A stretch of DNA of 64,000 nt from a virus: the IMG/VR virus record IMGVR_UViG_3300012153_000001, positions 1,190 through 65,189 of that record. One strand, written 5' to 3'. The notes under the pieces were generated by a model. It searched no databases. It saw nothing but the letters and a program-made list of their open reading frames with translations, and was not told the DNA's origin. A program made the translations under genes and the position numbers. Positions 2,161 through 19,233 of this stretch are shown here, in pieces (position 1 is the stretch's first letter; the number at the start of each line of letters is the position of its first letter).

Positions 2161-2418
2161 ATGAGTAACGAAAGGGAAGCACGTTTTATTTACGAGAGTA
2201 TGAAGGAGCATTGCGCGGGGCTACGTGAAGCACGAGAGTTAGGGGTGACGTCAATCTCGATTGATACGGCTGTTAGGCTCGCAGAAGTTGGCGCTATGGT
2301 TGCGTCACTACTCATTACGGAGTGTGCTAAGACAGACGAAAGAGCTCGCGTTACTCGTGGGATTACTGACGCACTTGACGGAGCAATTGCGCGGTTAGAC
2401 CGAACGAGTCGCTACTAA
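2161..2418 (+). CDS. hypothetical protein
   Basis: SD GGGAGGGA lies before the ATG. Confidence 0.5.
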   Translation: MSNEREARFIYESMKEHCAGLREARELGVTSISIDTAVRLAEVGAMVASLLITECAKTDERARVTRGITDALDGAIARLDRTSRY

Positions 2419-2517
2419 ATAACGGAGGATTAACGCAGATGAACAATGTACCAACATTCGAAACAATCGACGATATCATCGAATATTATCGCAAACAAAA
2501 CGGAGGAGCTGACGCGA

Positions 2518-2883
2518 ATGAGTAACAGGCCGACTATTCCCGCAGAAGTTGCTGACCTGATAGAGAATATGCGCAAAGCTGGCGCAACGAACCAGCAAAT
2601 GACGCGAGTTGCGCAAGGTAACACGCAGGTTGCGGTATATCACGAAATCCTATCGTCCATTCCGTTCGACACGTTGCTGGCCGCGATGGTTAACGGGTAT
2701 GAGCGGGAGTTGACGGAGGAGCAGAAACGGGCGGAGTCAGAGCGCGAGCTTGTGCTTTCCTACGAGAACCACCGCGGAGGAATTGGTCGATACACTACTG
2801 GGGAAGCGGACGACGCGTTCGCCGACGGAATTGAGTACGCGCTTGATATGATCGGAGTCCAAATCGAAGGAGTGAACGCGTGA
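2518..2883 (+). CDS. hypothetical protein
   Basis: SD GGAGGAG lies 9 nt before ATG 2518. The upstream track start at 2446 has no SD. Confidence 0.55.
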   Translation: MSNRPTIPAEVADLIENMRKAGATNQQMTRVAQGNTQVAVYHEILSSIPFDTLLAAMVNGYERELTEEQKRAESERELVLSYENHRGGIGRYTTGEADDAFADGIEYALDMIGVQIEGVNA

Positions 2884-3083
2884 AGATGGCGTTTATCCGA
2901 CGCATTATCGAAAATGCATTCGTTCAGTACGTATTATTCGGAATCATATTCGCGGCGGTACTATGCGTGTGTTTCCCGATTACGCCTAACGTATTTTGGA
3001 TGATCGTTGCTTTCTGGCCGTTTATCGTAGCACTATGGTTTTACGCTTTCATCAACGGAACAATTCCCGGAATGAATTTGTAA
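2880..3083 (+). CDS. small membrane protein
   Basis: GTGA overlap with the previous stop. SD GAAGGAG 7 nt upstream. Two hydrophobic segments. Confidence 0.5.
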   Translation: MKMAFIRRIIENAFVQYVLFGIIFAAVLCVCFPITPNVFWMIVAFWPFIVALWFYAFINGTIPGMNL

Positions 3084-3301
3084 GGAAACGGGAGTAATAG
3101 AGCCTAAAACGGAGTTGGAATTAATTACCCAGTTTCAATAAAACGGCACTTAAGTTAACATAACAAATCTTTCGGATATATTATGATAACTAGATCAACC
3201 AGTATTTTCCTTTTAACGATATACTCCTTTTTGCTTATTCGCCGAATATGACGTTTTACCAAATTACGCTAGTCCACTTATACTACGGAGGTGTCAACGA
3301 G

Positions 3302-3679
3302 ATGACAACGGAAACTAAGCGGGATTTACAAGCTGATCTTGCGCTATGTGATGCGGCGACGGCTGGGCCTTGGCGGATGTACGGCGGAAAGTTCGGAGAG
3401 ACAAACGTGTATTATCCTCCTTACGATAATCACGACGAAGTGGTATCGGATATCGACGCGGATCGAACGCATGATGCGAGGTTCATCGCAGAATCCCGCG
3501 AAGCATGGCCCGAAGCTATCCGCAGGGCGATCGCGGCAGAGGAAAAATGGGCTAAACTTCGGAGTGTTGTCATTACTAATGCTACGGGAGGAAACGGCGA
3601 GAATATTAACGATTGGGACATCATGCGGAACCATATGGACGAATTTGACTCGGAGGTGGTCGATGGTGTGGGACTTTAA
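3302..3679 (+). CDS. hypothetical protein
   Basis: SD GGAGGTG lies before ATG 3302, internal to the track ORF 3248-3679. Confidence 0.5.
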   Translation: MTTETKRDLQADLALCDAATAGPWRMYGGKFGETNVYYPPYDNHDEVVSDIDADRTHDARFIAESREAWPEAIRRAIAAEEKWAKLRSVVITNATGGNGENINDWDIMRNHMDEFDSEVVDGVGL

Positions 3680-3905
3680 ACTTAAGAAACGCGCATCAAA
3701 GCCGAAGGAGCCCGTCTGCTACCACGAATGGTTCTTGATAGACATGCGGATGGTCGACAGTTATATTTTTAACGACTCGCCAGAAGTCCGTTATGAAATC
3801 GTATGTAAGTCGTGCGAGAAATGTAAATCGCTTGACAAATACGAGTACCGGAAGTTTTGCGAAGTGTTCGAAGTAAAAGGAGGTCGGGAAGATGCCACGC
3901 GCTAA
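3663..3905 (+). CDS. hypothetical Cys-containing protein
   Basis: SD GGAGGTGG lies before ATG 3663. This is the C-terminal part of track ORF 3339-3905. Contains CKSCEKC. Confidence 0.45.
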   Translation: MVWDFKLKKRASKPKEPVCYHEWFLIDMRMVDSYIFNDSPEVRYEIVCKSCEKCKSLDKYEYRKFCEVFEVKGGREDATR

Positions 3906-4326
3906 GAAGCCGCCTAAACCGAAGATCACCGCAGACCAGCGCAAGGACTGGCGCAACCTTCCGCTCGAAAGCTGGAATGTACTCACGCTACAGGCGATGG
4001 TTGCCGATCTCAACCGCGAGCAATACGGAGTTACCGTATACGTCCCGATGCGCGGACACGGATTTGAGCAGGGCCAACTAAAGCGCGCACTTACGCAATA
4101 TGGGCCGTCAGCCCTACGCGAGACAATTACGCGAGCATTCCGTGAGCATCGGGTGACGCCGCAGTACCCGCAATTGACGGCGGGATTTCTGATTGCGTAT
4201 CTTTTGCCGAGAATAATGCCGCAGGTGCTGGCGGAACAGGCGCGGGCGGAGAAACAGGCGGAGTATTGCGGTGATAATGCGGATAACAACGTGTTGACTG
4301 ACAATGAAATAATTAATTTATTTTAG
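3892..4326 (+). CDS. hypothetical protein
   Basis: SD AAAGGAGG lies before the ATG. Confidence 0.55.
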   Translation: MPRAKKPPKPKITADQRKDWRNLPLESWNVLTLQAMVADLNREQYGVTVYVPMRGHGFEQGQLKRALTQYGPSALRETITRAFREHRVTPQYPQLTAGFLIAYLLPRIMPQVLAEQARAEKQAEYCGDNADNNVLTDNEIINLF

Positions 4327-4443
4327 CGCGGGAAAAAGCGGAGGAATCTGGAAAGTAATATAATACAACGATAATCATTCTAAAATCAGCCGTAAATTAG
4401 CCGCAAGCAATCCAAGATTACGTTACAGTTAGGGGGAACGCAA

Positions 4444-5220
4444 TTGTCGAATGCTAAAAACTGCATACTGGCGCAGCACTGTTCGCTAGCAGGCGGCGCG
4501 CAATGTACAAAGCTATGCGGATCTTATATCGCAACACACGGATTAAACGGCGCAGGCGGACGTGTAGGCGCAGCAAACCTACCGTCAGGCTACCGCGGCT
4601 TAACGCTTGCCAATTCGCCAGCACGGACGGACCAGGCGTCGATATACCGCGCTTTGGACACCTACGTTAAGACATTCGTACGCCAATTCGAAGAGTCACC
4701 GGAGGAACCGATCAAATCGCTGTACTTATATAGCGCAGGTCCGGGTACCGGAAAAACAACGACGGCGGCTGCGATAATCGGCGAATACATCGTACGTCAC
4801 TATATCGGATCAATCCAGCGCAACAGGCAAGCGCTTGATCGACCAGCGTATTTTCTCGATGTAAACGCGTGGCAAACGCTGTATACGGAGTTCAACCGAC
4901 CCAAAGTACCGGATGACATTGCGGAGCCTGCAGCGCGCCAATATTACGCGCAAATGCAGCACGCTAAAGCCGCTCCGTTTGCGGTGCTTGACGATATCGG
5001 TGTGCGTGAAGATACGGAGGGATTCCGCAGCGACTTGCATAGCGTGATTAACTATCGCGTGACAAACGACTTAATTACGGTATATACGAGCAACGTAGCG
5101 TTGAAGGACCTCGGCACGGTGTTACGTGAGACTACGCCGCGATTAATAGACCGGATTCGGGACCGTTGCATCGAGCGTGAGTTTGTCGGAATTAGTCACC
5201 GAGGACTCAAGCGAGCGTGA
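4444..5220 (+). CDS. DnaC/IstB-like AAA+ helicase loader
   Basis: TTG start with SD AGGGGGA. Walker A is GPGTGKTT and Walker B is AVLDDIG. Sits immediately upstream of the helicase. Confidence 0.75.
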   Translation: MSNAKNCILAQHCSLAGGAQCTKLCGSYIATHGLNGAGGRVGAANLPSGYRGLTLANSPARTDQASIYRALDTYVKTFVRQFEESPEEPIKSLYLYSAGPGTGKTTTAAAIIGEYIVRHYIGSIQRNRQALDRPAYFLDVNAWQTLYTEFNRPKVPDDIAEPAARQYYAQMQHAKAAPFAVLDDIGVREDTEGFRSDLHSVINYRVTNDLITVYTSNVALKDLGTVLRETTPRLIDRIRDRCIEREFVGISHRGLKRA

Positions 5221-11846: not shown

Positions 11847-11920
11847 CGTAAGTAAACGGAGCAAGCGTAGTATTGGGCGGAGGTCCCAACGGACAGCCCA
11901 CGAAAAGGGGAAACTCATTA

Positions 11921-13372
11921 ATGGCGAAACTTAACGTGGTAATTCCGGCAGTAGAGGTAACGGTGGATGGCGTGACTTATCGCAAGGTTGACCGCAAGGC
12001 GCAAGCGGGTGATATCGTTAAGGCGCTAAATAATGGTGACGACATCGATATGGGCGCATTCTACGCGGTGTACGTAAGCTCAGACCGTGAACTCGTGTTT
12101 GCGGATGATAACGGTGATGAGAGAGCGTATCAACTCAGAGAGAACTCGGATAAGTACGAAGTCTACGCGCCAATCTCCGAACCAGCCGCGGACACTATCA
12201 CGTTCGAAGGCGCAACATGGCGCAAAGTCGACCGCGATGTCCGCGAAGGCGATGCGATTAAGTTTACGGGTAAGGGACGCCGCAGCTACTTGACTGGTGC
12301 GGAGCTGTACGTTGTTGACCGCGTAGATTCGTGCGACGATCCGCAAATTACGGATGACGACGGAGATGATTACGACGCGGGCAGCGCTGATTACGAAGTC
12401 TACGAGAAGGTTGCGGAAGAGAAGACGCAAGTCACTACACCTCAGTATCGCGAGGTTAAGCGGAAAGCTGACGTAGGTGAGCGGATTAAGATCGTCGATA
12501 GGCTCGTATGGGAGACACGTTATGCGAACGGAGATACCTTCGTTGTAGCAGAGGACGCGGCTGGTGGTGACGTCGTTATTAGAACGGAGAATTTCCCGAG
12601 AGTATGCGTAGTTTATTCCGAATACGTCGTACTCGAACCGGTAACCGCGGAGCCTGCGAAGAAAGCGGAGCCAGAACGCCTGGCCGTCGGAGATTATGCG
12701 CGGGTTGTTGACGGAGAGAAAATAAACTCGGGAGCTCGCGTTGGAGACATCGTTGAGATACTCGTAGATGATAAGAGCACGGTGCCGTATAAAGTACGTA
12801 CAATTAGCGGCTATAGGGTCGGAGACGAAAACTGGGCGCTTCCTTCCGCATTTGTCCGCGCAACAGACGAAGAGGTGGCGGCCGCTAAAGATCCGCGCAG
12901 TAAATTCGAGATCGGAGACTACGTAAAGGTTGCGGTCGAATACTGCGAGCATAAGGTAGGCGACGTATTGAAGATTACGAACACAGCCAGCAGACACGAT
13001 TTCTACGTAACTAACGTGGCTACTAATCGTCTTGGGTGCATCGACGCAGACAAACTCGTTAAACTCACCGCAGCCGAAATCGCGGAGATCGAACGCAAGC
13101 AAGCGGAAGAAGCCGCTAAACGCGCTGAGGAAGCCCGCTGGAACGCGATCGGCCGTAAGGTGAACGAGTATAAACGCGGAGATTTGGTAAAGGTACTCGG
13201 AACTCTCGGCGGAGAAACCGAAGTAGGCGACATCGTGGAGGTATACGAAGGAGACGGAACTGACTCACCGATGATTTACGGTAATGATGGTTCAACATAC
13301 TACGCCACGGTTGAGCTAATCGTTCCGGTAGAGCAACGTTTCGACCGCGTAGAGGAGGTGGACGCCGCATAA
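11921..13372 (+). CDS. repeat protein, paralog family member P1
   Basis: SD AAAGGGGA lies before ATG 11921. Three units of type (Y/W)R(K/E)V(D/K)RKAxxG(D/E)xIK...YEVY/YVVLEP, followed by three xGDxVKV-type units. Confidence 0.6.
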   Translation: MAKLNVVIPAVEVTVDGVTYRKVDRKAQAGDIVKALNNGDDIDMGAFYAVYVSSDRELVFADDNGDERAYQLRENSDKYEVYAPISEPAADTITFEGATWRKVDRDVREGDAIKFTGKGRRSYLTGAELYVVDRVDSCDDPQITDDDGDDYDAGSADYEVYEKVAEEKTQVTTPQYREVKRKADVGERIKIVDRLVWETRYANGDTFVVAEDAAGGDVVIRTENFPRVCVVYSEYVVLEPVTAEPAKKAEPERLAVGDYARVVDGEKINSGARVGDIVEILVDDKSTVPYKVRTISGYRVGDENWALPSAFVRATDEEVAAAKDPRSKFEIGDYVKVAVEYCEHKVGDVLKITNTASRHDFYVTNVATNRLGCIDADKLVKLTAAEIAEIERKQAEEAAKRAEEARWNAIGRKVNEYKRGDLVKVLGTLGGETEVGDIVEVYEGDGTDSPMIYGNDGSTYYATVELIVPVEQRFDRVEEVDAA

Positions 13373-13381
13373 GCGCTAACC

Positions 13382-15244
13382 GTGCGGACTACAACGAAAG
13401 GAGTGAGCGCTATATCACCGAAACTAACGCTAAACTTACGGCCGCCAGCGGATGACGAAGCGGCGGAACGGGTGGCAGACGCAGCTAAACGGAAGAAGGC
13501 GGCGCAGGAGACGGACGAAGAGGCGATCGACCGCGTACTGCGGATGTCATTAACGGATAAGCAACGCGAGGCAATCGAAGGCTTACGGCAGGTATACGGA
13601 TCGGGCGAAACAGGCAATCGTCCGACTCTCCGTACCTCTGGCGGCCAAGTAACGAAAGAAGACGTAATCCGCGCGGCTGAACAACTGCAACGACAAAGGC
13701 AGACGGATCAGCGCGCGGAGAAAGTTGCGGAGACATTGCGGTCAAAGCCGGATAATTTCCACATCGTAACGGATGACGCGGAGTTACCTGCGTTCGTCGA
13801 GCGTATTCGCGAAGAGTGTCGGCGCCAAATGGCGGAGTGGCCGGATAGGTGGGCGATACTTGGCGTAAAATCGCTGACCGCGAATGACTTCGAGGGAACC
13901 GGAGTAGACACGTACATTGACGTATCAATCGGATATTCCGTATGGCTTCCGTTACTGGACGAAGGGTACTACCTTCCGTATGGGCACGTTGACATGCGCG
14001 GAGAATCGGGCTTCGACTTCCTGGACGATATGAGCGCACATAAATCAACCGACCGCCAGCTCACGCGTTCAAAAGTTCTCGCGGCAATCACGCCTTATCT
14101 ATCGCAACCAGCGCATGGCAAATCGTTTCATATGGGATCTGCGCGCTATGACTTACACGTTGCGATTAAAGACGGCTACGAGATTCACGGCTGCGTATGG
14201 GATTCGCTGGACGCGATGAACTCGTTAAATGAGCACGAGGAGTACTTCGGTCTCAAACCGTTAACCGCTAAATACGGACGTTACTTCGGAATTGACGGTC
14301 CGGTCTATACGTTTGAAGACATGTTTGGAAACCGTTCGCCAGCTCCGTTCAGCATCGAACTCGTCGGAATCTACGCGATCAAGGACGTACTGTACGGTTG
14401 GCGCCTTACGGAATGGCAATTCGAACAGATGCGCGTTACGCCGTCCGCAGAGAAGCCGGGCAAGCTTCTCGAATGTTATGCGCAAATTGACTCGAAGCTT
14501 CCGGAGACAGACGTATTCTTGGCGCGGTCCGGCTTCTGCGTTGATATTGACGGACTCGCCGCGTTAGAAACCGAGTTCGAACCGCTACTTGAGAAGGCTC
14601 GTGCTGACGTATTCGAAGCGTACGAAATTGACGACGCGTTTGTACGTAAGATGGACCGCACGATCAACGCGGCTAAGGTTACGGACTGGATCGATAAGCA
14701 ACGTAAGAGGATCGCACGGAATGCGGAAGCTCAGGAGAAACAACTCGCGATAATCTCGGAATGTAAAGCCGCAGGGAAAACGCAGCTCAAGAAATATACG
14801 AACGCGGTCGAAAGGCTTGCGCAATTGAAGGCGGAGAATTTAGCGCCAGCCGACGAAGAGCACGCGCCACTTAACGTAACGGAGTTTTCGATAACGAACG
14901 GGAATCACCTTGCGTATCTGATTTACGATCACCTCGGAATACGCGACCGCACCGGACAGTTCAAGCGCGGCAAGAACCGCAGTACGGCTGCTGACGTCAT
15001 GGAGGCGTATTACGAAGAGGAAGAAGCGCTCAAGCCGTTGGCGACCGTGGCTGCGTACGAGAAGCTGCTAACAACGTATATCCAACCGATGTTAGGGAGC
15101 GCGGGCAAATCGTCCATTATCGAAGTGGATGGGCGCGTACACTCGGAGTTCAAAGCGGGAGGGACCGCAACAGGGCGGTACAGTTCGTCAGGATACAGCG
15201 GAAGACCGATCGATATATTACGCGAATTTGAAACGGAGGAATGA
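13382..15244 (+). CDS. polA: family A DNA polymerase, N-terminal part (3'-5' exonuclease + N-terminal pol domain)
   Basis: Exo I-like NDFEGTGVD. The ORF ends ...GGTATGRYSSSGYSGRPIDILREFETEE*, right after the PolA TGRxSS motif. The start is uncertain (GTG 13382, or ATA 13412 after an SD). Confidence 0.85.
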   Translation: MRTTTKGVSAISPKLTLNLRPPADDEAAERVADAAKRKKAAQETDEEAIDRVLRMSLTDKQREAIEGLRQVYGSGETGNRPTLRTSGGQVTKEDVIRAAEQLQRQRQTDQRAEKVAETLRSKPDNFHIVTDDAELPAFVERIREECRRQMAEWPDRWAILGVKSLTANDFEGTGVDTYIDVSIGYSVWLPLLDEGYYLPYGHVDMRGESGFDFLDDMSAHKSTDRQLTRSKVLAAITPYLSQPAHGKSFHMGSARYDLHVAIKDGYEIHGCVWDSLDAMNSLNEHEEYFGLKPLTAKYGRYFGIDGPVYTFEDMFGNRSPAPFSIELVGIYAIKDVLYGWRLTEWQFEQMRVTPSAEKPGKLLECYAQIDSKLPETDVFLARSGFCVDIDGLAALETEFEPLLEKARADVFEAYEIDDAFVRKMDRTINAAKVTDWIDKQRKRIARNAEAQEKQLAIISECKAAGKTQLKKYTNAVERLAQLKAENLAPADEEHAPLNVTEFSITNGNHLAYLIYDHLGIRDRTGQFKRGKNRSTAADVMEAYYEEEEALKPLATVAAYEKLLTTYIQPMLGSAGKSSIIEVDGRVHSEFKAGGTATGRYSSSGYSGRPIDILREFETEE

Positions 15245-15248
15245 GTAG

Positions 15249-15578
15249 ATGACTAAATATCTTTTGCCTCTCATTGACGGTGGTATCGTGAAAATTGAGA
15301 CTGATTCGGAGTACTCGCCAGGCTGCGAGACGTGTGACTACGGAAGTTTATATATAAACGATTTCAACGTTCTATTGAGTACTGGAAATATATACGTCAG
15401 AGCAGAAAATATGTACGAGTACGCATTGTCCGAGGGCTACTTAATGGAGCTCATTCTTCCGAATACAGACCTTATTAAAGGGATGACAGAGCGTGGGTTC
15501 TTTGAGTGGGTTGAGGAGAGCCTGCGAGGTAAGTTTGGAAGTCTAATCGATATTTGCGAGTTCAACGCTAATGCCTAA
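15249..15578 (+). CDS. hypothetical 109-aa protein inserted inside polA
   Basis: SD GGAGG lies 10 nt upstream. AT-richer than the flanks. CETCDYG is the only motif seen. No homing-endonuclease motif recognised. Confidence 0.6.
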   Translation: MTKYLLPLIDGGIVKIETDSEYSPGCETCDYGSLYINDFNVLLSTGNIYVRAENMYEYALSEGYLMELILPNTDLIKGMTERGFFEWVEESLRGKFGSLIDICEFNANA

Positions 15579-16659
15579 CATAACTGACGCTAATTACCAC
15601 GCTATTGTCCGTAAGCTTATCGCAGACAACCGCAAGGTAAGACGCGGCCTCAACGCCCAGAATTTACCATCTAAAGGCGCAGGCAGCCGCGTCCGTAATC
15701 AATTCGTTCCTCGCGAAGGCTTCACGTTTGTCGGCGCCGACCTCGGGCAGATAGAGCCTCGAATAATGGCGCACATCATGTATACGAAATATAACGACAA
15801 CTCTATGCGTCAAATCTTCGTAGACGGCGTCGACCTCTATACGACTATGGCGATGATGACGTTCGACTTGCCAGAAGAATACTGCGTCGACAAAGCGTAC
15901 GATCCGACCGGCAAGTTCAAGCCGCGCGTAATGATGAAGACAGGCCAGCTCGCGGTGTCATACGATCAATCCGTTAAGTCTTTCGCGAAGAAGATGCAAG
16001 TTACCGACGACGTTGCGCAGATGTTCTTCGAAAACTTCGACCAAACGTTTCCGTCGTTTAAAACGATGGTGGCCGATATTCGCGACTTCATGCGTCAGCA
16101 CGGTTATGTAGAAACACTTTTCGGCCGCAAACGTCGCTTCCCGGATTATAAACGCGTAGCTGCGTCAGCATCGAAGAATGAGCAACGGTTGATCCGCTTG
16201 TACACTGAACGGAAATCACTCCGCCGCCTGACGCCGACCGATGCAGAACAACGAAGGATCACCGCACTGCAAGAGGAGATAGGCAAGCTCGCAGAGGATC
16301 GCGGTAATGTCGGCTACTGGGAACGTGCTGCCTTCAACGCGGTTATCCAAGGAACTGGCGCGGACATCCTCAAGCGCATTGGTATCCGTATGGCACAGAT
16401 ATGTCGAGAACGCGGATGGGAGTTTAACGCGTCAATACATGATGAAGTTATCGTAAGCATTCCGGACGATCAAATGACGCCGGAAACAATCGCGCTTATT
16501 AACGAAGTGATGACGAAGACTTCCGAGTTAAGCGTGCCGCTTACGACGGACATTGCGATACAAAAGCGCTGGATGATGGAGTATTCAGCGGACGAATGGG
16601 ACTACGCGAATAACCGGCCGTTGCCGGAGTTTGCGAATAAATACGGGGAGGCTGCGTAA
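15571..16659 (+). CDS. polA: family A DNA polymerase, C-terminal part (motifs A, B, C)
   Basis: LNAQNLPSKG (the PNLQNIP equivalent), motif A VGADLGQIEPRIMAH, motif B KTGQLAVSY, motif C SIHDEVIV. The ATG overlaps the stop of the inserted ORF and has no SD. Confidence 0.85.
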   Translation: MPNITDANYHAIVRKLIADNRKVRRGLNAQNLPSKGAGSRVRNQFVPREGFTFVGADLGQIEPRIMAHIMYTKYNDNSMRQIFVDGVDLYTTMAMMTFDLPEEYCVDKAYDPTGKFKPRVMMKTGQLAVSYDQSVKSFAKKMQVTDDVAQMFFENFDQTFPSFKTMVADIRDFMRQHGYVETLFGRKRRFPDYKRVAASASKNEQRLIRLYTERKSLRRLTPTDAEQRRITALQEEIGKLAEDRGNVGYWERAAFNAVIQGTGADILKRIGIRMAQICRERGWEFNASIHDEVIVSIPDDQMTPETIALINEVMTKTSELSVPLTTDIAIQKRWMMEYSADEWDYANNRPLPEFANKYGEAA

Positions 16660-17559
16660 ATGGAACAGCGTAAATATACGAGTATTGTACGAATGGGACA
16701 TCGCGATACTGTAGGAGTCGTTAAGGAAGGCGACTATATCACGGTATACGAAAAGTTGGACGGAGCTAACGCGTCGTTTTCGCTAAGAGATGACGGAGAA
16801 GTCCTCGCGTTCTCACGTAACACGCAGCTCTCTCCGGAAAATAACCTACGTGGATTCTACGAGTTTACTCGCGGTATTAATCCTTCCGCACTAATGCCAG
16901 ACACTATTTACTACGGAGAATGGCTCGTTAAGCACAAAGTCGATTACGGAGACAAAGCGGCAACGTTCTATCTGTTCGATATCTACAGCACTATCGACGA
17001 AGATTACGCGCCAACTGACGTTGTTATCTCCGAGGCCGCATGGTTGGGACTCGCAATTGCACCGATCCTATACGCAGGCCCTTACGTATCATTCGAACAC
17101 CTGCAATCGCTGGTTGGGCGGTCTTCATACGCGGTAAACGCAGCAGGCGGCGAAGGCATCGTCGTCAAGAACGTTAATTTCCGGGATCAGTACGGTAAGC
17201 AAACGTTTATGAAGCTCGTTAGCGAAGAATTCCGCGAGATGCAGCCGCAGAAGGCTCCGCGTGATCCTAACGCTGTGGAAACGGTCGAGACGGCGTTCGT
17301 CAAAACGTACCTGACCGAGGCGCGCGTCGATAAGCTATTACGCAAACTCGTTGATGAGGCGATTATTCCGGAAGCGTTCGGACTAGAGGATATGGGCGTC
17401 ATCCTGCGTGAGCTTGGCGGCCGCGTATACGATGACCTATTGAAAGAGGAGAGCGCGGACTTACCAGCGGACTTTGACGAGAAGGGATTGCGCAAGGCGA
17501 TCGGAAGGGTATTACCGGTACTTGTACGCGAAATTATTAACGGAGAGGTGGCTGCGTAA
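16660..17559 (+). CDS. ATP-dependent RNA ligase (Rnl2-like)
   Basis: Nucleotidyltransferase motifs I EKLDGAN, III YYGEW, IV EGIVVK and V FMKLVSEEF, arranged as in T4 Rnl2. Confidence 0.7.
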   Translation: MEQRKYTSIVRMGHRDTVGVVKEGDYITVYEKLDGANASFSLRDDGEVLAFSRNTQLSPENNLRGFYEFTRGINPSALMPDTIYYGEWLVKHKVDYGDKAATFYLFDIYSTIDEDYAPTDVVISEAAWLGLAIAPILYAGPYVSFEHLQSLVGRSSYAVNAAGGEGIVVKNVNFRDQYGKQTFMKLVSEEFREMQPQKAPRDPNAVETVETAFVKTYLTEARVDKLLRKLVDEAIIPEAFGLEDMGVILRELGGRVYDDLLKEESADLPADFDEKGLRKAIGRVLPVLVREIINGEVAA

Positions 17560-18183
17560 ATGAACGAAATAGTAACGGTAATTGACATCGAAACAACCGG
17601 ACTTGACCCGCTCACCGATCATATTACGGAAATCGCCGCCATCCGTGCGGAAGTTGGGTCGGGCAGTTACATCCGCGAGATCGGACGGTTCCAGACGTAC
17701 GTTGCACTTCCGCTGGGTGTTAGGATTCCGGAGAAGATTACGGAGTTGACCGGAATTAAGGCGGAGGATTTGCGCGATGCTCCTTCGGAAATAAACGCTT
17801 GGACAATGTTACAGCGACTGTCTCGGGGATCTCGATTAGTGGCGCATAATGCTCCGTTCGATCTCGCGTTTATTAGGCCGGTAATGCACCAAGGATTCGC
17901 CTGCACTCGCGCCATGTCCCGCCTAATTGATCCGGACGAGAACGCAAGCCTTGCGCCGACATGTGAGCGTTACGGAATCGCGCTTAACGGACATCACCGC
18001 GCTATGAATGACGTGGAGGCTACGCTGCAGCTTTACGCAATCCTGCGGGAGAAAGCGGAAGTTAACGGAATCACATACCGCAATGTCGTCGTTGATAGCG
18101 CGGAACGGCCGCTGACGTATACGCCGCCTGGCGCGATTGTGCGTACGATTACGCGGAAACAACAAACTAAGGAGGCGGTTTAA
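17560..18183 (+). CDS. DnaQ-like 3'-5' exonuclease
   Basis: Exo I VIDIETTGLDP, Exo II AHNAPFDLAF, Exo III HRAMNDVEA. Confidence 0.8.
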   Translation: MNEIVTVIDIETTGLDPLTDHITEIAAIRAEVGSGSYIREIGRFQTYVALPLGVRIPEKITELTGIKAEDLRDAPSEINAWTMLQRLSRGSRLVAHNAPFDLAFIRPVMHQGFACTRAMSRLIDPDENASLAPTCERYGIALNGHHRAMNDVEATLQLYAILREKAEVNGITYRNVVVDSAERPLTYTPPGAIVRTITRKQQTKEAV

Positions 18184-19233
18184 ATTACGGATAACCAACT
18201 AATCGCAAATAGAATCGCGGAGCAATTTACGGTATTCCTGAACGAGTGGCATTCCGCGCCAGAAGTGTACGACGACGCTCTCGACGCGCAGATTCACGGC
18301 TGGTATCAAAACGTACTTACGGACAAATCACGCAAAGTATGGCCGCCGCGGAACATTCCGTACTTCTCGCCAAGCTCCTCCAACTCCGATGCACGCGGCC
18401 TCTACGAAAAGATGCGCGGCGCTAAGCGTGAGTCATCCGACCGACCTGCGCATCAAGGACGTTGGGTCCGGATAGGGACGGCAATTGGCGATGTCATTCA
18501 GCGCGATATTCTGTTCGCGGAGAAACATTACGCACGCCATTACGGAGAGAATCCGCGCTTCACATTCGACCGTAACGAACGCGGCGAGCCGGTATTCGAG
18601 GACTTCGCTAAACGCGGCCATATCGTTAATCACGGCGGCCAGACATTCGCGTTATATGGAACATGCGACGGAATCATGCAAGTTTACGTACCGGAGCTCG
18701 GCCGGACGGTGCGCGTCGGCCTCGAAATTAAATCGAAGCAAGGAACGTACTCCGCGACATCCGGATATTCCACGAGGAATGGCGCGAAGGAAGACCACGT
18801 TAAGCAATGCGTCTGCTACTCGATTATGTATGACGTTGACTTCTACGTAATCCTCTACGTTAACGCGAGTAAGAAGGCGTGGGCGATGCCTGACGTGGAT
18901 ATCGAAAAGTATCCGGACATTGCGGCGTTCGGCCTGCATATTACGGATGCGATGCGCGGTGAAATGCTTGACCACTTCGCCGAAATCGTTGACGCTGCGA
19001 ATAAAGGCGAGCCGCCTGCGCTGGATCTCGATAAGTGGTTATTCCTAGACTTCAAGCGGACGGTATCCTTGTCACTTTCGGAAGACGAGGTGGAAGCGTT
19101 AAGGCGCAAAGTAGCCGCGATTATGAGATCGAACCTGCCGGACTGGAAGAAGCGCGGGCCGGCGGAGGCGTTAGCGGATATTGAGCGGATTAGGGAGGAA
19201 GAGGCGGAGAGCCAAACGAAGGAGGCTGCGTAA
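18184..19233 (+). CDS. PD-(D/E)XK (RecB/YqaJ-type) nuclease, probable ATT start
   Basis: GTCDGIM...GLEIKSK core. AAGGAGG (18169-18175), 8 nt, then ATT 18184. The first canonical start, GTG 18265, has no SD. Confidence 0.6.
   Translation: MTDNQLIANRIAEQFTVFLNEWHSAPEVYDDALDAQIHGWYQNVLTDKSRKVWPPRNIPYFSPSSSNSDARGLYEKMRGAKRESSDRPAHQGRWVRIGTAIGDVIQRDILFAEKHYARHYGENPRFTFDRNERGEPVFEDFAKRGHIVNHGGQTFALYGTCDGIMQVYVPELGRTVRVGLEIKSKQGTYSATSGYSTRNGAKEDHVKQCVCYSIMYDVDFYVILYVNASKKAWAMPDVDIEKYPDIAAFGLHITDAMRGEMLDHFAEIVDAANKGEPPALDLDKWLFLDFKRTVSLSLSEDEVEALRRKVAAIMRSNLPDWKKRGPAEALADIERIREEEAESQTKEAA

Follow-up and report, generated by a model that had tools for sequence, protein, structure and literature searches.

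Why would a phage encode its DNA polymerase in two pieces, with another small gene lodged between them? This question is raised by a stretch of 64,000 nucleotides of viral DNA, positions 1,190 to 65,189 of the IMG/VR record IMGVR_UViG_3300012153_000001, referred to here as the window. Two of its open reading frames (ORFs) encode the N-terminal and C-terminal halves of a family A DNA polymerase (PolA), termed here the N-half and the C-half, and a gene of 109 codons, termed the cargo, lies between them. From sequence comparison we find it highly probable that the enzyme is an old and stable two-subunit family A polymerase, that the junction of its two genes is an exchangeable cassette slot, and that the 109-codon gene is the current occupant of that slot. 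The features of the locus are as follows.

13382-15244, + strand: PolA N-half, 620 aa; N-terminal/exonuclease-like region, thumb and first palm strand up to TGRYSS
15170-15187, + strand: TGRYSS, with R599 aligned with Taq R573
15188-15241, + strand: N-tail, SGYSGRPIDILREFETEE, 18 aa, clade-specific and conserved as protein
15235-15239, + strand: GGAGG Shine-Dalgarno (SD) sequence, inside the last codons of the N-half and 9 nt before the cargo ATG
15249-15578, + strand: cargo gene, 109 aa, phrog_20043 family
15571-16659, + strand: PolA C-half, 362 aa; remaining palm and fingers
15571-15648, + strand: C-head, MPNITDANYHAIVRKLIADNRKVRRG, about 26 aa, clade-specific; codons 1-2 are part of the swapped cassette, the rest is conserved
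15652-15669, + strand: NAQNLP, equivalent to Taq N580-P585
15739-15762, + strand: motif A, DLGQIEPR (D57, E62), aligned with Taq DYSQIELR
15925-15963, + strand: motif B, RVMMKTGQLAVSY (R119, K123, L127, Y131)
16438-16446, + strand: motif C, HDE (H290-E292)

The two halves of the polymerase

The Pfam profile DNA_pol_A (PF00476) matched the N-half over profile positions 5-124 (38.5 bits, cut-off 34.3) and the C-half over positions 127-380 (157 bits, E=8e-46). The two ORFs are thus complementary pieces of one domain. When aligned with Taq polymerase, the N-half corresponded to residues 439-579, ending at P579, and the C-half to residues 577-832, beginning at S577; the break maps to the Taq loop between TGRLSSS and DPNLQNIP, for which the window has TGRYSS and NAQNLP. 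The same loop reads TGRFASAEPNLQNLP in the unsplit polymerase of Bacillus phage PK2 and TGRYSSSNPNMQNIP in that of Clostridium phage FA70. PHROGs holds separate families for such halves, phrog_12241 for the N-half (E=5e-172) and phrog_10285 for the C-half.

The first-pass annotation, made from the letters and the ORFs alone, had described a PolA split between TGRxSS and NxQNLP by a 109-codon gene, and the ORFs, their coordinates and the Taq and Pfam alignments agree with that description. The N-half ended as ...TATGRYSSSGYSGRPIDILREFETEE with its stop codon at 15242-15244, and the cargo ATG followed 4 nt past this stop in a reading frame different from that of the N-half. The C-half began as MPNITDANYHAIVRKLIADNRKVRRGLNAQNLP (in a longer extract, MPNITDANYHAIVRKLIADNRKVRRGLNAQNLPSKG...VGADLGQIEPRIMAH), its ATG overlapping the cargo stop by 8 nt. 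The annotation had also given the insert an SD of its own and a lower content of guanine plus cytosine (GC), which were borne out by GGAGG at 15235-15239 and by a GC of 0.43 as compared to 0.52 in the flanks. For the C-half it had noted no SD and a probable coupling, a fair reading since only a weak GAG precedes the start; translational coupling of the C-half to the cargo is plausible from this arrangement. Its suggestion to define the boundaries by alignment with uninterrupted homologues was followed with Taq, PK2 and FA70, and revealed about 40 extra residues at the break, namely the 18 of the N-tail and about 26 of the C-head.

A GGAGG ahead of the N-half stop was found in nearly all of 25 aligned loci, one of which has GGGGG. 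Judging by its placement, this sequence in the end of the N-half serves whichever gene comes next. We found no promoter-like or terminator-like site on the + strand within 13000-18500; the cargo shows no promoter or terminator of its own and would use the operon transcript and the SD in the N-tail.

The set of family A motifs was complete across the two chains: A (DxxxxE), B (RxxxKxxxxxxxY), C (HDE), TGRxSS and NxQNxP. Residues D57, E62, R119, K123, Y131 and H290-D-E were invariant in 16 diverse C-halves. The polymerase domain did not form a single polypeptide: its two ORFs differ in frame and are separated by another gene, and only one relative (L084, below) had it fused. Structure-function knowledge of Pol I enzymes, together with the Taq alignment, indicates that with the TGR arginine on the N-half and motifs A to C on the C-half neither chain would be active alone, so that the two chains would have to associate. 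We take the polymerase of the window to be a two-polypeptide family A enzyme. In motif B (KTGQLAVSY), a leucine (L127) stands at the position of Phe762 in Klenow and Phe667 in Taq, and L127 was invariant in 16 relatives.

Relatives of the split gene and the order of events

Megablast of the polymerase region against GenBank phages returned no match, and relatives were detectable at the protein level only. The nearest GenBank phages, with C-halves 67-71% identical to that of the window, were the Paenibacillus larvae phages Halcyone, Heath, Scottie, Unity, Tripp, C7Cdelta, Ley and Ash. The relatives surveyed comprised the cultured phages Halcyone and Tripp, 21 IMG/VR loci, one Logan contig and 17 loci from a scan of one genome per bacterial species, whose hosts were Paenibacillus, Brevibacillus, Neobacillus, Sporosarcina, Alkalihalobacillus, Thermoactinomyces and Terribacillus. 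Two of the 17 scan loci duplicated IMG/VR contigs, and the total came to 40 distinct phage or prophage genomes.

The polymerase was split at the same TGRxSS/NLQN loop in 39 of the 40 genomes. The slot was empty in 13 genomes, fused in one, and held one same-strand gene in 26. Where it was empty, the stop of the N-half overlapped or abutted a GTG or ATG start, with the GGAGG of the N-tail before it, as in aaaacGGAGGtggtcgcGTGA of L014. The fused locus, L084 (Sporosarcina sp. ACRSL, NZ_JAKRNT010000009.1, 2222-5062), was one ORF of 946 aa reading ...TGRYSSSSYNGRSKDAYVGAVNDANYIDAVKSLIKDDSRVGKGVNLQNIP; it came from the genome scan, and a junction-spanning query against the protein database gave only matches that covered one half.

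In a single genome, a split inside the catalytic domain resembles a sequencing frameshift, and the polymerase might be a pseudogene or its split an artefact of assembly. However, the same architecture was present in 39 other independent genomes, plaque-forming phages among them, and such a recurrence of one break is not the work of chance or assembly. Moreover, purifying selection acts on both halves and on the tails, the catalytic residues do not vary, and a complete conserved ORF lies between the halves. We consider the chance of a pseudogene or an artefact to be negligible, and the inactive gene that the first-pass annotation had listed as one option was dropped in favour of the two-polypeptide polymerase that it had listed as another.

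The selection on the tails was estimated over 32 loci as pN/pS, the ratio of nonsynonymous to synonymous differences, in which both terms are proportions and not corrected rates and the synonymous sites are near saturation: it was 0.18 for the N-tail (14 codons after TGRYSS) and 0.23 for the C-head (23 codons), as compared to 0.37 and 0.26 for the adjacent 66-codon cores on the N and C sides. Purifying selection on the tails is no weaker than on the cores beside them. We hold with moderate confidence that the tails (GRPIDILxEFETE; ITDxNYHAIVRKLIADxRKVxxG) probably form the subunit interface, by analogy with the mobE-split NrdA of phage Aeh1, in which the tails at the break are essential for activity (Crona et al. 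2011, PMC3045599).

Could the interruption instead be removed from the transcript, or bridged by the ribosome, so that one chain is restored? Related PolA genes are indeed interrupted by group I introns that carry HNH genes, as is probably the case in FA70, and an unusual intron had been offered as an option for the window. However, the non-coding sequence before the cargo amounts to 4 nt and an 8-nt overlap follows it, which is too little to house a ribozyme core. Splicing would take out residues that are conserved at the protein level in the 32 loci, and the empty-slot relatives still carry two overlapping ORFs with an SD and a GTG or ATG start. At the junction and in six related loci Rfam detected no intron family, a negative that is weak by itself and counts as supporting evidence only, since Rfam also missed the probable intron of FA70. 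It is therefore very improbable that one chain is restored by a self-splicing intron, by translational bypass or by a frameshift, and the intron option was given up. Programmed frameshifting or bypass was also rejected by itself, as the frame relation between the halves differs among loci and the empty slots have an SD and a start codon. A split intein was another candidate rejected: the tails of 18 and 26 aa compare with about 100 aa for an N-intein and about 35 aa for a C-intein, and they showed neither splicing residues nor an intein match in Pfam.

The order of events was examined in a neighbour-joining (NJ) tree with 200 bootstraps. It was based on 653 alignment columns, which covered the C-half and the final 330 aa of the N-half, and was rooted on the unsplit polymerases of PK2 and of three metagenome-assembled genomes. 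Two Thermoactinomyces loci, split and empty, were basal (92%). The next branch was an all-empty clade (92%) in which the fused L084 was the sister of the split L021 (99%), followed by a mostly empty clade (100%) in which the empty L019 was sister to the occupied L092 (100%). The cargo-rich crown, within which the window falls, was monophyletic (92%). Since L084 is nested among split relatives, its single ORF is probably a secondary re-fusion across the loop. Since the deep-branching relatives are split with nothing between the halves, the split predates the 109-codon gene. The option raised in the first-pass annotation, that invasion by the 109-codon gene had created the split, is thus contradicted, the more so as 15 other unrelated genes were found at the same place in close relatives. 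A parsimonious history would have the loop insertion and the split in the ancestor, then one re-fusion, with cargo gained, lost and replaced repeatedly. As part of the whole explanation, to which we give good confidence, the split is best regarded as an old, stable and clade-wide arrangement of two genes.

We propose the following sequence of steps. A clade of phages and prophages of Bacillales (among them Paenibacillus, Brevibacillus, Neobacillus and Thermoactinomyces) would descend from an ancestor whose TGRxSS/NLQNxP loop had about 40 extra residues and whose polymerase gene broke there. The two resulting cistrons would have overlapped, the end of the N-half supplying GGAGG for the next start codon. 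The boundary would then have become a cassette slot at which, in the crown, one small same-strand gene was gained, lost or exchanged between phages, the 109-codon occupant being a lower-GC accessory gene of a family otherwise scattered through low-GC phages. In the window, the N-half, cargo and C-half would be co-transcribed; the geometry of the sequence suggests that the cargo would be translated from the SD in the N-half tail and the C-half by termination-reinitiation at the ATGCCTAA overlap. The two chains would assemble non-covalently, the N-half giving the R599 minor-groove contact and the thumb and the C-half giving motifs A, B and C, with the conserved tails acting as the interface in the way proposed by analogy with the NrdA-a/NrdA-b tails of phage Aeh1.

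The junction as a cassette slot and its occupants

The 26 occupants of the junction formed 16 BLASTP clusters, distributed as follows.

phrog_20043: slot in the window and L004
DUF7296 (PF23969): slot in Halcyone, Tripp, L005 and L012
58-aa membrane protein: slot in 3 loci
phrog_5848: slot in 3 loci
HNH_3 + AP2-like endonuclease, about 180 aa: slot in L017 (3465-4007) and L080 (3447-3995)
53-aa ORF: slot in 2 loci
N6/N4 DNA methyltransferase (PF01555), 228 aa: slot in L015, about 3321-4007; the largest cargo found
Other occupants: DUF6440 lipoprotein-like protein, phrog_9357, a Cys-rich 62-mer and several orphans

These genes were tightly packed. In the 25 aligned loci the cargo began within about 10 nt of the N-half stop and its end overlapped the C-half start or lay a few nt from it, a doubtful 31-aa ORF in L024 being the exception. 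The GC of the gap was lower than that of the flanks in every occupied locus.

Exchange at the slot was evident from the closest relatives. The window and L005 were sisters in the tree (100%), with N-halves and C-halves 95% and 94% identical, and their cargo genes were unrelated, that of L005 being DUF7296. Their nucleotide homology (88%) ended at 15242, in the N-half stop codon, and resumed at 15577, in codon 3 of the C-half. L004 (Logan SRR28200982, 1-4620), which carries the same cargo family, was 95% identical to the window in the N-half, 76% in the cargo, 81% in the C-half and 76% in an RNA ligase. The drop from 95% to 81% suggests that a recombination breakpoint lies at the N-half stop or close to it, that is, at the slot. 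The RNA ligase gene provided a control showing how cassettes sit in this module.

16660-17559, + strand: RNA ligase (PF09414), a second precise cassette, between the C-half and the DEDDh exonuclease

This gene is missing from L005, where homology jumps from 16664 to 17547, and L004 and L006 alone were found to have it; the gene that precedes the N-half, by contrast, is always directly adjacent. Both marks of a cassette were thus found at the junction, namely precise replacement or absence between close relatives and a deviating base composition. We conclude from these comparisons that the cargo is an interchangeable 'moron'-like accessory gene from a low-GC phage gene pool.

The cargo protein belongs to phrog_20043 (E=2e-15), for which PHROGs lists the function as unknown. 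A word-indexed protein search gave only three close homologues; an exhaustive profile search exposed the family, with at least 257 clusters at 50% identity, and thus answered the proposal of the first-pass annotation to look for the protein in other contexts. Homologues were found in the Clostridioides difficile phages LIBA2945 and LIBA6276, amid small hypothetical genes, and in 46 IMG/VR contigs, mostly of 24-45% GC and often longer than 100 kb. PolA was within 3 kb in none of the 46 viral loci. There was no recurrent neighbour in 43 loci, a metallophosphoesterase-like ORF occurring in 9 and an RtcB-like ORF in 5.

The family is marked by a GCxTCDYGS loop (G25-S33, 15321-15347; G-C-E-T-C-D-Y-G-S in the window), in which G25, C26, T28, C29 and G32 were at least 90% conserved among 70 sequences. 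A pN/pS of 0.17 between the window and L004 indicated purifying selection on the cargo. AlphaFold2 run with 70 sequences gave a model with a predicted local distance difference test score (pLDDT) of 90, as against a poor model (pLDDT 63) from 3 sequences. The better model predicts a sheet of four strands, followed in the description by two long helices and a terminal strand; the CxxC lies in the loop that joins strands 2 and 3. Foldseek comparison of the model with PDB and BFVD found nothing similar (best E 0.68 and 0.06, respectively), 71 family members gave no Pfam match, and profile search against PDB sequences gave nothing significant. The cargo of the window itself had no Pfam match and no nuclease motif or domain, in keeping with the earlier statement that it lacks HNH, GIY-YIG and LAGLIDADG motifs. 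One might guess from the CxxC loop that it is a small dimeric or metal-binding protein for host takeover or anti-defence; with one CxxC per chain, metal-bridged dimerisation or redox chemistry is a matter for speculation.

The position of the cargo between the halves, its translational coupling, its conserved CxxC loop, the purifying selection on it and its retention in two related genomes (the window and L004) would all suit an accessory or assembly factor of the polymerase, such as a thioredoxin-like processivity partner or a chaperone of the halves. But the sister L005 has DUF7296 in its place, 13 relatives have an empty slot, and the other occupants are lipoprotein-like or membrane proteins, a methylase and an HNH protein. 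Further, none of the 46 family members elsewhere is near PolA, and the family has no recurrent neighbour. An accessory factor is on this evidence most unlikely. The first-pass annotation had suggested more widely that the inserted gene might be a mobile element of a new kind or a factor for the polymerase; this is unlikely too. That the cargo stands outside the polymerase mechanism is, as a part of the whole explanation, quite probable from the comparison of loci.

How the split first arose is a separate question. A free-standing endonuclease of the HNH type may have made the split by inserting into the conserved DNA that encodes TGRxSS/NLQN, and brought the tails, and may later have been lost or replaced by other genes, the 109-codon gene among them; this concerns the origin only and is compatible with a two-subunit polymerase and cassette slot in the present. 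Homologous HNH_3 + AP2-like proteins, 53% identical, occupy the slot in L017 and L080, which belong to two different polymerase sub-lineages, a distribution suggestive of homing into the slot. As is typical of sites of homing endonuclease genes (HEGs), the target is a segment of the active site that is highly conserved; in addition, unsplit PolA has nothing equivalent to the tails, recombination breakpoints fall at the slot, and there are published precedents (PMC3045599, PMC10448857). However, the HNH gene was present in only 2 of 40 genomes, both in the crown, every basal lineage was empty, and small mutations can make or revert the break, as seen in the fused L084 with its split sister L021 (99%). 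We regard an endonuclease origin as possible but doubtful.

Some points tell against an old split with a later cassette slot. The NJ method is distance-based and used 653 columns, and the basal position of the empty state depends on a distant unsplit root (25-33% identical). HEGs are quickly lost, and an endonuclease-driven origin of the split, doubtful as we consider it, is compatible with the data. In this phage, a role linked to the polymerase would also be in keeping with the tight translational coupling of the cargo and with its CxxC loop. That the halves assemble, and what the tails do, is inferred.

A further and tentative thought, which we rate as rather improbable, is that the break evolved into a privileged, 'entrenched' cassette site, and that the split was kept as a useful docking site and was not merely tolerated. 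If so, a gene in the slot would be transcribed and translated with the replication genes, and it would be shielded from loss, as an imprecise deletion of the cargo would kill expression of the C-half. Cargo would be shuffled between co-infecting phages by recombination that the slot HNH perhaps triggers, and the 16 cargo families, the CxxC protein included, would be concentrated early genes for host takeover or anti-defence.

Other interrupted genes and minor features of the locus

The closest known arrangement is the split PolA of Halcyonevirus (Halcyone gp59/gp60/gp61; Tripp gp65/gp66/gp67), in which the break position and the tails are the same as in the window. Its halves share 63-71% identity with those of the window and are separated by a gene of about 105-110 codons, and the same neighbours, a DEDDh exonuclease and a Cas4-like nuclease, follow downstream. 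The genome papers on Halcyonevirus listed the two polymerase genes separately and left the arrangement undiscussed (PMC6070908). The two-gene architecture was thus already deposited and annotated in these genomes. The intervening gene of Halcyone and Tripp is DUF7296 (PF23969), unrelated to the phrog_20043 protein of the window.

In mechanism, the nearest precedent is the genes-in-pieces NrdA of Aeromonas phage Aeh1, split by mobE, which Friedrich et al. reportedly described in 2007. In Aeh1, as in the window, an essential enzyme is broken in a conserved catalytic region, has unique tails and has a gene between its pieces. In Aeh1, however, the insert is the endonuclease that caused the split and the case is known from one phage, whereas the clade of the window has a clade-wide split, an interchangeable and mostly non-nuclease occupant, and empty and re-fused forms. 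The analogy with mobE and NrdA that the first-pass annotation had drawn is therefore good for an enzyme that works in pieces with tails, and is weaker for the origin, as an HNH gene is in the slot of L017 and L080 and not in that of the window.

PolA is likewise interrupted by a small ORF in a conserved segment by the SPO1-family group I intron with an I-HmuI-type HNH. In Clostridium phage vB_CtyS-FA70 (L074 775-4038), PolA was broken in motif A, between GKDLS and QIEPR, by an I-HmuI-like HNH gene with non-coding flanks of 112 and 167 nt. This interruption is probably a group I intron, going by its sequence; Rfam gave nothing at E <= 0.01 there. It differs from the window in its motif A site, in its ribozyme flanks and in that ligation restores DLSQIEPR, whereas the window has neither flanks nor nuclease and its residues at the break are conserved as protein.

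Two-gene phage PolAs occur elsewhere, one with an unexplained small ORF between the genes (PMC10580990; bioRxiv 10.1101/325100), but these belong to unrelated phage groups and the likeness is one of gene arrangement. These reports described neither a diversity of cargo nor a phylogenetic history. An essential replication gene likewise has another gene between its two halves in fractured genes with split inteins and a free-standing HEG (Dassa et al. 2009, PMC2677866). Unlike these, the window has tails of 18 and 26 aa, far too short, and lacks splicing residues, and protein splicing is not expected.

What is new here is the picture at the level of the clade: a stable and reversible split, conserved tails, an SD in the N-tail, and a slot with at least 16 gene families, in which the slot HNH may drive cassette exchange. 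The enzyme would be a replicative family A polymerase made of two non-covalent subunits, cut between the primer-contacting arginine of TGR and the palm with NLQN and motif A. For protein engineering, this offers a naturally occurring place at which to split Pol I-type enzymes, complete with natural 'zipper' tails. For phage evolution, it means that fragmentation and cassette turnover are separable in time, the split having preceded the cargo. Two such 'DNA polymerase' genes should be counted as one enzyme by annotators and by pangenome tools. The slot genes (phrog_20043, DUF7296, phrog_5848 and others), which would be co-expressed with the replication genes, are candidates for host-takeover or anti-defence roles.

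Two repeats were seen at the junction. An imperfect direct repeat of 17 nt (14/17 match) was present at 15200-15216 and 15537-15553; the two copies encode GRPIDI in the N-tail and GSLIDI at the C-terminus of the cargo, each about 25-28 nt ahead of its own stop. It was rejected as a target-site duplication: by our estimate about 0.24 such repeats are expected by chance, it was not seen with other cargo types, and the C-terminal strand is native to the cargo family. An inverted repeat of 12 nt, 92% complementary, pairs 15234-15245 (the region of the SD and the N-half stop) with 15450-15461, 204 nt within the cargo, and is probably a chance match.

Directly upstream of the N-half, positions 11873-13372 encode a 499-aa protein with about nine repeats of a (V/I)GD.V+V signature. 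This protein had no match in Pfam. Its homologues, 26-61% identical, always lay directly upstream of the N-half in the relatives.

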